Shown: piece after piece, positions 5,552-6,490 of the stretch | Layout: every line of letters starts with the position of its first letter | How positions within the stretch are numbered: position 1 is the first letter of the stretch | DNA from: a virus | DNA length: 25,540 nt | Direction: 5' to 3' (one strand) | IMG/VR virus record: IMGVR_UViG_3300001517_000005 | Location: 1-25,540 of that record | The notes under the pieces: model-generated | What the model was told of the DNA's origin: nothing | What the model saw: only the letters and a program-made list of their open reading frames with translations | Database searches by the model: none | Made by a program: the position numbers and the translations under genes

Positions 5552-6490
5552 ATGAAAAAAATTAAATTAGTTAGTCAAACAGAAGACACAACTCTTGAAA
5601 CACTCTTTGAAGATTATCTTAATAGTTGTGAGATACGTGGCCTATCAGCGCGCACGCTCACCAACTACAAAACCTCCCTTGAATGTCTCTTTGCGTTCCT
5701 GCAAACCAACAACATTATATACCCAAAGGACCTGACAATTCAAGTCCTTGAAAACTATATTAAATATCTCCAAGAGCAAGGTTTGAAGGACAACTCAATC
5801 AACTTTGATATCCGCAATATAAGAGCATTCCTTAAATGGTGCGAAGAACGCGAAATAATGAAACGGGTTAAACTTAAGGAACTCAAAGTAGATATGCCAA
5901 TCAAAGAGACCTATACACAAGAAGAACTTAAAGTCCTTCTACGCAAACCCTCCAAACCTAAATCATTCTTGGACTTCCAAACTTGGGCCGTTGAAAACTT
6001 CCTCTATGCTACTGGTGCGCGCATTGGTGTCTTACCCACAATGCATATAGAGGATATAGACTTTAAGAATAGCACCATCACAATGGTAAGAACTAAAAAC
6101 CGTAAAGGAATGGTTATCCCTTTAAGTAACGCCCTAAAAAAAGTTCTTACAGAGTTTCTTAAAGTCCGTAAAGGCGAACCAACTGATTTTCTCTTTTGCA
6201 ATGCTTACGGTGGGGCCACAACTGTGCGCGCACTGCAAGGACAAATACAAGATTATAACATCGCCCACGGCGTCTCCAAGACATCAGCGCACTTATTCCG
6301 CAGTTCATTCGCCAAGGCTTACATCCTCAATGGAGGGGATGCTTTTAGACTACAAAAACTTCTAGGCCACGCAAATATCACAACCACCCAAATCTATGTA
6401 AATATGTTTGGCACAGACTTACAGAGAGATTTTGATAAGTTCAATCCATTAGATAATCTCTCTGTAAGGAAAGATAAGATAAAAGTTTAA
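5552..6490 (+). CDS. int: Tyrosine recombinase / phage integrase (XerC/D-like)
   Basis: Uninterrupted 312-aa ORF in the standard code, ending in TAA. N-terminal SAM-like domain (LSARTLTNYKTSLECLFAFL). Catalytic signature ATGARIG...HLFRSSFA...LLGHANITTTQIYV (R..HxxR..H..Y). It is the only plus-strand gene and contains no TAG codon. Confidence 0.96.
   Translation: MKKIKLVSQTEDTTLETLFEDYLNSCEIRGLSARTLTNYKTSLECLFAFLQTNNIIYPKDLTIQVLENYIKYLQEQGLKDNSINFDIRNIRAFLKWCEEREIMKRVKLKELKVDMPIKETYTQEELKVLLRKPSKPKSFLDFQTWAVENFLYATGARIGVLPTMHIEDIDFKNSTITMVRTKNRKGMVIPLSNALKKVLTEFLKVRKGEPTDFLFCNAYGGATTVRALQGQIQDYNIAHGVSKTSAHLFRSSFAKAYILNGGDAFRLQKLLGHANITTTQIYVNMFGTDLQRDFDKFNPLDNLSVRKDKIKV

Follow-up and report, generated by a model that had tools for sequence, protein, structure and literature searches.

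How does a phage that reads TAG as glutamine in nearly all of its genes come to keep one long gene, that of a tyrosine integrase, entirely free of in-frame TAG, and what does this say about the conditions under which that gene is translated? The stretch of DNA analyzed here (the window, 25,540 nt) is the complete circular genome of a siphovirus-like phage, 25,390 bp in length, with the ends of the assembly overlapping by 150 bp.

25391..25540: assembly overlap, an exact repeat of positions 1-150, on which the circular and complete call is based
5552..6490, + strand: tyrosine integrase/recombinase gene (int), 312 codons from ATG to TAA, no in-frame TAG (PF00589 and phrog_1)

The Genome Is Read With Genetic Code 15

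TAG is read as glutamine in this 25.4-kb genome. Under code 11 its longest ORF is 480 aa, whereas treating TAG as sense produces ORFs of 2024, 1082 and 761 aa and raises the summed length of ORFs of at least 100 aa from 5,288 to 10,542 aa. The standard-code relatives L002 and L003 have glutamine opposite 43 of 86 TAG positions of the window, against a glutamine background of 4.6%, and in the reciprocal check 31 of 40 TAGs of the relative L001 align to glutamine in the window. Our corrected gene models (in which the over-extended ORF 3178-3582 is replaced by 3178-3390) comprise 27 genes, with in-frame TAGs in 24 of the 26 genes other than int, 90 in total. ARAGORN found no tRNA in the window or in 10 related loci, so that no suppressor tRNA is encoded; a Rfam scan of the window at E≤1 gave no match, and the 27-gene map leaves no room for a release factor or aminoacyl-tRNA synthetase gene. 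The phage family covers codes 11, 15 and 4 at about 65-90% protein identity. Its nearest homologues are Clostridia-like, and one relative comes from a cattle-rumen project (PRJEB21624).

Structural and Early Genes Both Depend on TAG

14292..15533, - strand: terL, 11 TAGs among 19 Gln codons (Pfam Terminase_3, E=2e-60)
12913..14346, - strand: SPP1-type portal gene, six TAGs (PF05133, E=2e-117)
6722..8980, - strand: collagen-like tail fibre gene, 752 aa, five TAGs (Gly-X-Y repeats; Collagen Pfam match in orthologues)
1..3178, - strand: giant tape-measure-like gene, N-terminal part (the ORF joins across the 150-bp overlap)
19467..25390, - strand: giant tape-measure-like gene, C-terminal part (the same ORF across the circular junction)
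16164..16730, - strand: DnaD-like replication-initiation gene, early (phrog_186, E=1.5e-7)
17782..17955, - strand: putative HTH gene, small (57 codons), its one TAG at codon 53 (17797-17799); weak HTH matches

The preliminary description of this DNA held that terL, the portal, the tube, the fibre and the giant ORF cannot be translated under code 11, and the early positions of their in-frame TAGs bear this out. The first TAG is at codon 42 in terL, which is the most TAG-enriched gene, at codon 54 in the portal gene, at codon 24 in the tube gene and at codon 219 in the tail fibre gene. The giant gene (3,033 aa, 30 TAGs) starts at ATG 3178, which corresponds to the TMP N-terminus of relatives, and lies directly upstream of Dit and Tal; its first TAG is codon 60 counted from the upstream stop (3247), or about codon 37 from the ATG.

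It had also been proposed that early genes are kept compatible with the standard code, and here the data disagree. The DnaD-like gene has a TAG at codon 75, present also in its L143 and L146 orthologues, and is not code-11 compatible; like the HNH gene and the small neighbors of the two, it carries TAG in each genome examined, and the putative HTH gene carries one too. The simple scheme in which early genes use the standard code and late genes are recoded does not hold. The putative HTH gene had been counted with int as effectively TAG-free. Its single TAG is indeed at codon 53 of 57, as it is in the near-identical loci L146 and L147, but depletion could not be upheld: one orthologue has a TAG at codon 40 and three have none, about the genome-average rate, and since 57 codons predict only about 0.7 TAG, a count of one is without statistical weight. 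Its assignment is itself tentative, with 19.1 bits to Pfam HTH_60 (cut-off 24.1; E=1.8e-3), the HTH domain of AcrIIA15 as the best relevant match of a profile against PDB (E=0.02) and no match in PHROG.

An Integrase Gene Without TAG

6487..6702, - strand: 71-aa gene convergent with int, one TAG, function unknown (phrog_1863, E=2.7e-13)

The int product matches PF00589 with E=2.5e-29 (102.7 bits, cut-off 27.1) and the integrase family phrog_1 with E=3.7e-43, and it has SAM-like N-terminal domains. An alignment of 24 homologues shows no variation at the catalytic residues R157, K182/K185, H247, R250, H273 and Y282. Int is the sole + strand gene and runs antisense to all the others from within the late operon, with the fibre module on one side and the tail module on the other. 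The 3′ end of the 71-aa gene overlaps the int stop by 4 nt; this gene accompanies int in five of seven genomes and is missing from relatives that lack int.

Our recount found no in-frame TAG at 5552-6490, as had been described. Outside int there are 90 TAGs in 7,853 codons (1.15%), a rate that predicts 3.58 in int (P=0.027 for none), so that the earlier hand estimates of about 1.1%, three to four expected TAGs and a Poisson probability near 3% were sound. When conditioned on glutamine the result is stronger: int has 13 CAA/CAG codons and no TAG, while elsewhere 31% of Gln codons are TAG (P=0.0075, or 0.0086 in the hypergeometric/Fisher version). The two other TAG-free genes of the genome are small, 9299-9631 (110 aa) and 4424-4606 (60 aa), and both have orthologues that carry TAG. 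Thus int is the one sizeable gene without TAG and is open to translation in an ordinary host cell.

Could one 312-codon gene among 27 simply lack TAG by chance? None of these P values (0.027, 0.0075-0.0086) would survive a 27-gene Bonferroni correction had int not been chosen beforehand. The pattern recurs, however, in all seven diverged genomes as well as in two independent clades already published, by which chance is effectively refuted, and we give it practically no credence.

The Absence of TAG Is Conserved Among Related Phages

Orthologous int genes occur in seven dereplicated, diverged genomes, at the same site and in the same orientation in all of them. Pooled, they contain no TAG among 89 Gln codons in 27 alignment columns, whereas TAG makes up 23-33% of the Gln codons of neighboring genes in the same genomes and 24% family-wide, the value with which int was compared. 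The naive binomial probability, 3.5e-12, overstates the independence of seven related orthologues; a conservative test in which each of the 27 columns is counted once gives about 6e-4 (0.76^27). All other orthologous groups with more than one member carry TAGs. Synonymous sites in int are near saturation, the codon being shared at only 45-56% of identical residues, and 17 Gln columns are not conserved, so that there have been many chances for int to gain a TAG. In one lineage (L024, L025 and L026) TAG does occur in the gene, but as its stop codon, exactly where other orthologues have TAA.

The alternative raised in the preliminary description was recent horizontal acquisition, in which int would have come from a standard-code source too recently to have gathered TAGs. 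Two observations speak for it. First, int is accessory: it is missing at this site from L001, the closest relative by structural genes (86-90% aa), and is internally deleted in L148, a 96%-identical genome; L002 and L003, relatives that use the standard code, have a different int (36% identity) at another location. Second, its composition is distinct, with 22% C against 15% elsewhere, the highest GC3 of the genome (0.396) and a synonymous codon usage that diverges by 0.204 nats/codon, a value exceeded only by the capsid gene. Its C-richness, however, matches the genome-wide strand skew and thus fits long residence on the opposite strand. Moreover, the same cassette is found at one site and in one orientation in seven diverged genomes, its orthologues differ by 17-30% in protein sequence with none having acquired a TAG, and int has diverged no less than a resident gene should (70-83% pairwise aa identity, against 59-72% for the adjacent tail genes). 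We therefore consider recent acquisition very unlikely. A co-divergence analysis of int and the neighboring tail genes was uninformative, the distances being star-like (r = -0.28).

Did the base composition of the int coding strand make TAG rare? G makes up only 17% of that strand (21% in the other genes), from the position-specific base frequencies of int one expects 2.3 in-frame TAGs rather than 3.6, and out-of-frame TAGs are about 60% as dense in int as in the remaining genes. Even so, 2.3 per gene amounts to roughly 16 TAGs over seven orthologues, of which none is seen. Within int itself there are six and four TAGs in the two other frames and none in frame, and these 10 indicate that the trinucleotide is not itself avoided. 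The precursor CAG, a single step from TAG, is present at one to five copies in every int orthologue. An explanation by strand composition is in our judgment extremely improbable.

A different kind of selection might also be imagined, in which inefficient decoding of TAG, even in lytic growth, leads genes that need reliable output to avoid it with no switch of code. Consistent with this, the families of the major capsid protein (4 TAGs among 44 Gln codons, P=8e-3) and the scaffold (10 among 90, P=9e-4) are significantly depleted in TAG, so that TAG use does vary inversely with some expression-related property. An integrase is not expected to be highly expressed, though, and yet its avoidance (0 of 89) is stronger than that of the capsid; terL, which is needed in modest amounts, is the richest in TAG. 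The use of TAG as the stop codon of int is, furthermore, sensible only if TAG terminates while int is being translated. Selection for efficiency is thus a doubtful explanation to which we attach a low probability.

That the pattern is replicated in seven genomes, and that one lineage ends int with TAG, argue that chance, strand composition and recent acquisition are not the explanation. Neither outcome that the preliminary description named as refuting was borne out: none of the relatives has TAG within int, and the gene's unusual composition is accounted for by long residence on its strand. From these comparisons of sequences, the absence of TAG from int appears to result from purifying selection that keeps the gene translatable while TAG is a stop codon.

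No further orthologue emerged from wider searches. Scanning IMG/VR with the single sequences of int and Tal brought up no relatives; with int alignments, IMG/VR, the JGI metagenomes and the GTDB genomes yielded only homologues of at most 53% identity; and ORF coverage proved too noisy a measure of recoding in 96 distant int-bearing loci.

The Region Upstream of the Integrase

5217..5551, no strand: non-coding region of 335 nt upstream of int (seven-genome alignment; relatives call no gene)
5247-5254 (-), 5286-5293 (+), about 5310-5318 (+), about 5373-5381 (+), 5496-5503 (-) and 5524-5531 (+): copies of the motif AAACATAGGACGAAAA
5246..5294, no strand: conserved inverted repeat/hairpin with 14-bp arms formed from motif AAACATAGGACGAAAA and a variable loop (RNAalifold)
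5480..5508, + strand: putative sigma-70-like int promoter, TTGACT / 17 nt / TATACT (promoter scan, 10/12 match)
5536..5540, + strand: Shine-Dalgarno sequence AGGAG, 11 nt 5′ of the int ATG (read from the sequence)

The predicted int promoter is common to all seven relatives, with blocks of TTGAC and TATAT kept in the alignment. The conserved motif occurs at least five times, in both orientations, between 5217 and 5551 and clusters only there. RNAalifold pairs 14 positions of the hairpin, with compensatory changes in four, and the -10 box of the promoter lies between the arms of a second inverted pair. The region is a candidate attP and/or operator region, in which the array of the 16-bp conserved motif may provide binding sites of Int or of a regulator. 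A search for the tRNA T-arm-like att core GGTTCRANTCC gave no matches. The 83-aa ORF at 5188-5439 (two TAGs under code 15) is spurious, relatives calling no gene in what is conserved non-coding DNA. An inverted repeat, 5374-5396 / 6114-6136, that could have served as an invertible switch of the int promoter is conserved in no relative and is a chance match.

Is this protein a lysogeny integrase at all? It could instead be a Xer-like resolvase of dimers, or an invertase, in an episomal phage or plasmid-prophage, its avoidance of TAG then reflecting a housekeeping need. At 312 aa the protein is short and resembles XerC/D: it has a SAM-like N-domain but lacks one for arm binding. Its gene is embedded in the structural operon rather than at the border of a module, and a 46%-identical homologue was named "integrase/recombinase XerD" by JGI. 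Nor was an integrated copy found in GTDB genomes (185k species representatives, in which the closest int is 45% identical), JGI metagenomes or IMG/VR, all contigs with an orthologous int being phage-sized, at most about 27 kb. Against a Xer-like role, homologues of 35-45% identity are placed as is typical of prophage integrases, some in the genomes of Clostridia and some at IMG/VR contig ends, and comparable recoded phages of 24-25 kb have been shown to integrate at tRNA genes next to int; against an invertase, the inverted repeat that joins the interior of int to the region upstream lacks conservation, so that nothing points to an invertible segment. We regard such a role as unlikely, although it has some small probability.

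A Probable Host-Readable Integrase in a Recoded Phage

The phage is likely of temperate type, with a standard-code bacterium of the Clostridia/Bacillota as host. This lineage yielded no integrated copy, attB or host genome, so that both lysogeny and the standard genetic code of the host are inferred. Taking the evidence together, we think it probable that int is kept free of TAG for translation while TAG terminates, in a temperate code-15 phage whose Int is made by the host and whose lytic growth follows a switch. Int would be translated while TAG is still a stop codon, straight after infection and/or from the prophage. Its own promoter and ribosome-binding site would allow host RNA polymerase and unmodified ribosomes to produce it at full length; without suppression of TAG, 24 of the 26 other genes would give truncated products, those for replication, terminase, portal, capsid, tail and holin among them. 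The default in a standard-code cell would then be production of Int and lysogeny, and lytic development would require a switch to read-through of TAG. The time of Int expression and integration by Int are, of course, presumptive. No actuator of the proposed code switch was identified, neither the genome nor its relatives encoding a suppressor tRNA.

A bolder possibility, which we hold to be rather doubtful if less so than the alternatives above, is that the phage is "code-locked". Lysogeny would then be the translational default and immunity would rest on incompatibility of codes and not on a CI-type repressor, until a TAG-to-Gln suppressor supplied in trans unlocked the lytic programme. Such a suppressor might come from the host (e.g., an inducible tRNA) or from a co-resident or superinfecting recoded phage. 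The antisense position of int in the late operon could add to the lock, and integration at the att-like array, between the head/fibre and tail modules, would split that operon. In a standard-code cell only Int and two small structural-module proteins are full-length, and we recognized no repressor.

A host-readable integrase in an otherwise recoded phage makes this a clean, complete and very compact case of two genetic codes in one 25-kb genome. Selection that keeps the integrase readable by the host is in line with a published proposal, by which lysogeny and lytic growth are kept apart through stop-codon recoding, and lends it support; it also sharpens the question "What switches the code?", since nothing in the 25.4-kb genome can. 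A family with codes 11, 15 and 4 is a convenient system in which to follow the evolution of recoding. There is a practical consequence as well: annotation of such contigs under code 11 would recover little beyond an integrase.

Comparison With Known Systems

In domain architecture (PF00589 with a SAM-like N-domain) and in its full R-K-H-R-H-Y set the protein resembles the XerC/XerD-like recombinases, and it differs from lambda Int in having no arm-binding N-terminal domain.

The code-15 crAss-like and Lak phages share with this phage the use of TAG for glutamine in structural and lysis genes, standard-code hosts and a proposed translational gate. They are, however, large and virulent, and many have suppressor tRNAs, release factors or tRNA synthetases, whereas the phage described here has 25 kb, is of temperate type and has no tRNA. 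They also keep early and replication genes partly in the standard code, while here the replication gene is recoded too.

The closest likeness, judged from the published description, is to the Garnet phages of Prevotella and the Topaz phages of Oscillospiraceae, for which a TAG-free integrase and a lysis-lysogeny hypothesis were reported in genomes of 24-25 kb (Borges et al., bioRxiv 10.1101/2021.08.26.457843). Avoidance of TAG in their integrases was significant in both groups (p = 5e-3 for Garnet, p = 1.2e-16 for Topaz), TAG is sometimes the genuine stop codon of int, and integrated prophages were found in Prevotella and Oscillospiraceae that use the standard code (Borges et al., bioRxiv 10.1101/2021.08.26.457843). 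As here, they are small (23.7-25 kb, circular), read TAG as glutamine, have a large tape-measure gene and lose nearly all genes under code 11; int is among their few TAG-free genes, with avoidance significant family-wide, and standard, TAG-recoded and TGA-recoded members occur within one clade. A suppressor tRNA is often missing as well, being present in only 35-40% of recoded phages. Our phage differs in the position of int, antisense within the late operon and flanked by the fibre and tail modules, in that neither a tRNA-like att core nor an integrated copy was found, and in that int is accessory, missing from one relative and deleted in another. Its size of 25.4 kb, Clostridia-like homologues and cattle-rumen relative are, by description, compatible with Topaz. 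The integrase pattern is therefore not new, and this genome is a further example of a kind of phage already described, one that resembles the Garnet and Topaz phages of Borges et al.

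Genetic code and gene content

The first and last 150 nt of the window (1-150 and 25391-25540) are identical, and this exact 150-bp terminal overlap indicates that the assembly is circular, with 25,390 unique bp. ORFs in the standard bacterial code reach 480 aa at most. With TAG as a sense codon there are ORFs of 2024, 1082 and 761 aa, and those of at least 100 aa add up to twice the length; TGA as sense brings little gain, and TAA as sense gives many more ORFs, the longest at most 518 aa. TAG encodes glutamine: of 86 TAG positions in the window, 43 are matched by Q in two standard-code relatives (Q background 4.6%), and the reciprocal comparison had the same outcome. 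Our corrected map has 27 genes, 26 of them on the minus strand and only one, the integrase gene int, on the plus strand:

5552-6490, plus strand: int, tyrosine recombinase, catalytic domain PF00589 (E=2.5e-29)
Minus strand, head, packaging and holin genes: terS, terL, SPP1-type portal, holin, MuF-like protein, scaffold, major capsid, connectors
Minus strand, tail genes: collagen-like fibre, tail-completion protein, tube, chaperones, tape-measure-like gene, Dit, Tal
Minus strand, other genes: 57-aa putative HTH protein, HNH endonuclease, DUF5659 protein, DnaD-like replication protein
3178..1 joined to 25390..19467, minus strand: tape-measure-like gene, 3,033 aa, crossing the circular junction, 30 TAG

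The large ORFs at either end of the window thus form a single tape-measure-like gene, which occupies 36% of the genome; its orthologues (2,935-3,015 aa) have faint SH3_3 matches. Two small minus-strand genes (3374-3688 and 3178-3390) lie between the tube and tape-measure genes, in different frames and overlapping slightly, where the tail-assembly chaperone pair, often expressed with a programmed frameshift, is usually found. The window genome has no recognisable separate endolysin gene.

The family was viewed through portal-anchored loci from IMG/VR (related loci and genomes bear the handles L001 to L148). Within this single phage family, with terL at 69-90% amino acid identity, three genetic codes are found: TAG is recoded in L001, L004, L005 and L009, the code is standard in L002 and L003, and L006 is recoded TGA to Trp (11 in-frame TGA, seven aligned to W). 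L004 is only lightly recoded, with many TAG-free genes, including a 1,084-aa tape-measure stretch with 22 CAA/CAG, and its recoding may be at an early or incomplete stage. The holin gene (12458-12847, minus strand, between the portal and MuF genes; phrog_13712, E=2.3e-30; 2 TAGs) has a homologue at the same position only in TAG-recoded relatives (L001, L004, L005, L023, L024); none was detected there in L002, L003 or L006.

Absence of TAG from the integrase gene

A recount bore out the preliminary description of int as TAG-free (0 in 312 codons), and the late genes it had called untranslatable in the standard code are all truncated early by TAG. The other 26 genes have 90 TAG in 7,853 codons (1.15%), a rate at which int would be expected to have 3.6, and the probability of none, 0.027, matches the earlier hand estimate of about 3%. 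Since Gln is what TAG encodes, a fairer test conditions on Gln codons: outside int 31% of these are TAG, and all 13 in int are CAA/CAG (P = 0.0075; hypergeometric P = 0.0086). The triplet is not generally avoided, since it occurs out of frame six and four times in the two other frames of int. Only two other genes in this genome, both small (110 and 60 aa), lack TAG.

Does this absence extend to relatives? A protein search found int orthologues with 72-79% identity to that of the window, on contigs of up to 27 kb. In these too int is the only gene on its strand; it has the fibre module on one side and the tail-completion gene on the other, and about 320 nt of non-coding DNA lie upstream of it. 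TAG inside int in related genomes had been named as evidence against the idea; there is none in any of seven dereplicated genomes, in which 23-33% of the Gln codons in the genes next to int are TAG. Int orthologues have the same codon at only 45-56% of identical residues, and Gln appears in 27 alignment columns, always as CAA or CAG; 17 of these columns are not conserved, so many int Gln codons arose independently. Pooled by orthologous group, 0 of 89 int Gln codons are TAG (naive P = 3.5e-12), and with each Gln column counted once P is still about 6e-4. The catalytic residues are all invariant among homologues.

In L024 (10937-10939), L025 and L026, relatives with int orthologues, a TAG lies exactly at the position of the TAA stop of the others. 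A recoded call of the L024-type gene gains a 19-residue tail (331 aa in total); most simply, this TAG is a stop for int in these three genomes.

Base composition offers one alternative, in which a strand bias alone left int without TAG. Its coding strand is C-rich and G-poor, its GC3 of 0.396 is the highest among compared genes of at least 180 codons, and from its own position-specific base frequencies 2.3 in-frame TAG would be expected, which softens the single-gene statistic but cannot yield zero TAG in seven lineages. Recent acquisition, for which a foreign composition would have spoken, fares no better: the composition is distinct, but the skew is that of a genome-wide strand asymmetry and so fits long residence on the opposite strand, and the divergence among int orthologues (70-83% identity) is on a par with that of resident genes (59-72% for adjacent tail genes), although the star-like tree permitted no proper test of int and tail-gene co-phylogeny.

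All other orthologous groups with more than one member contain TAG. Those next most depleted are the major capsid (10003-10815; 4/44 Gln codons) and scaffold (10843-11430; 10/90), indicating that TAG use does respond to expression level. That expression explains int as well is harder to maintain, because its avoidance is absolute while terL is TAG-rich (14292-15533; 51/118 Gln codons, or 43%, as in the MuF-like gene, 11571-12461, 30/70). Codon 4 of terL is TAG in several relatives.

These codon comparisons give good support to a mechanism in which Int is selected to be translated at a time when TAG still acts as a stop.

HTH and early genes

The putative HTH gene (17782-17955, minus strand) does have, as first described, one TAG near its end, at codon 53 of 57, shared by the near-identical loci L146 and L147. 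This 57-aa family is well conserved, though its HTH assignment is weak. It is not TAG-depleted, being at roughly the genomic average: the orthologues of L143, L145 and L004 have no TAG, and that of L144 has one at codon 40, which would leave 39 aa. TAG is present in the DnaD-like replication gene, HNH and small adjacent genes of all genomes examined, with recurrent positions such as codon 75 of the replication gene. Int alone is therefore standard-code compatible, and the proposed division between lysogeny or early genes and recoded late genes does not hold; the original interpretation finds support in int but none in HTH and the early genes.

Several loci have an extra gene of 129-181 aa between Tal and HTH (L143 9500-9889, L144 9497-9889, L145 9337-9882, L146 9509-9934). 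It is absent from the window (gap 17956-18079), has no Pfam or PHROG match, and contains 0 TAG versus 2-5 CAA/CAG in every genome examined, making it a candidate second standard-code gene.

Surroundings and distribution of int

The 335 nt upstream of int are non-coding and conserved:

5217-5551: int upstream region, with Shine-Dalgarno AGGAG
5480-5508: sigma-70-like promoter of int, TTGACT-17-TATACT

A 16-bp motif, AAACATAGGACGAAAA, is present in this region at least five times, in both orientations, and forms a cluster nowhere else in the genome. One inverted pair forms a 14-bp stem (5246-5259 / 5281-5294) with four compensatory pairs and another brackets the -10 box; the copies are plausibly recombinase or regulator sites (attP and/or operator). 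A 23-nt inverted repeat from upstream of int to its interior (5374-5396 / 6114-6136, 20/23 complementary) is conserved in none of six relatives and is probably due to chance. A 71-aa gene, convergent with int and overlapping it by 4 nt, is found beside it in five of the seven genomes.

The int cassette is accessory. L001, the closest relative (86-90% amino acid identity for terL, portal and capsid), lacks int at the syntenic site, and L002 and L003 have a different one (36% identity) between Tal and HNH. In L148, a genome 96% identical, int (4681-5250, equivalent to window 5552-6490) has two internal deletions corresponding to window 5785-5944 and 6023-6220, and its catalytic core is gone; L148 is a natural int-defective variant. 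Alignment-based searches for int in GTDB genomes, JGI metagenomes and IMG/VR turned up no orthologue above 53% identity and no integrated copy, and all contigs carrying int are phage-sized. The nearest int and terL homologues all belong to Clostridia/Bacillota or their phages.

According to ARAGORN, neither the window nor any of ten related loci (L001-L006, L021, L023-L025) has a tRNA, and a permissive scan (E<=1) found no Rfam family in the window. What remains of interest is a complete genome without any code-switching device or recognisable repressor, together with the position of int and its motif array, which is unusual in lying within the late operon.

Comparison with Garnet and Topaz phages

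Garnet and Topaz are TAG-recoded phages of 24-25 kb, found both circular and integrated, whose hosts are standard-code Prevotella and Oscillospiraceae (Borges et al., bioRxiv 10.1101/2021.08.26.457843). According to the same study, the integrase is among their few genes without in-frame TAG, TAG avoidance in integrases is family-wide (p = 5e-3 and 1.2e-16), C-terminal TAGs of int are taken to be genuine stops, suppressor tRNAs occur in only 35-40% of recoded phages, codes are mixed within clades, and the code is proposed to be a lysis-lysogeny switch. The window genome agrees with this description in every testable respect, and the finding is accordingly a further example of the published pattern and not a discovery.
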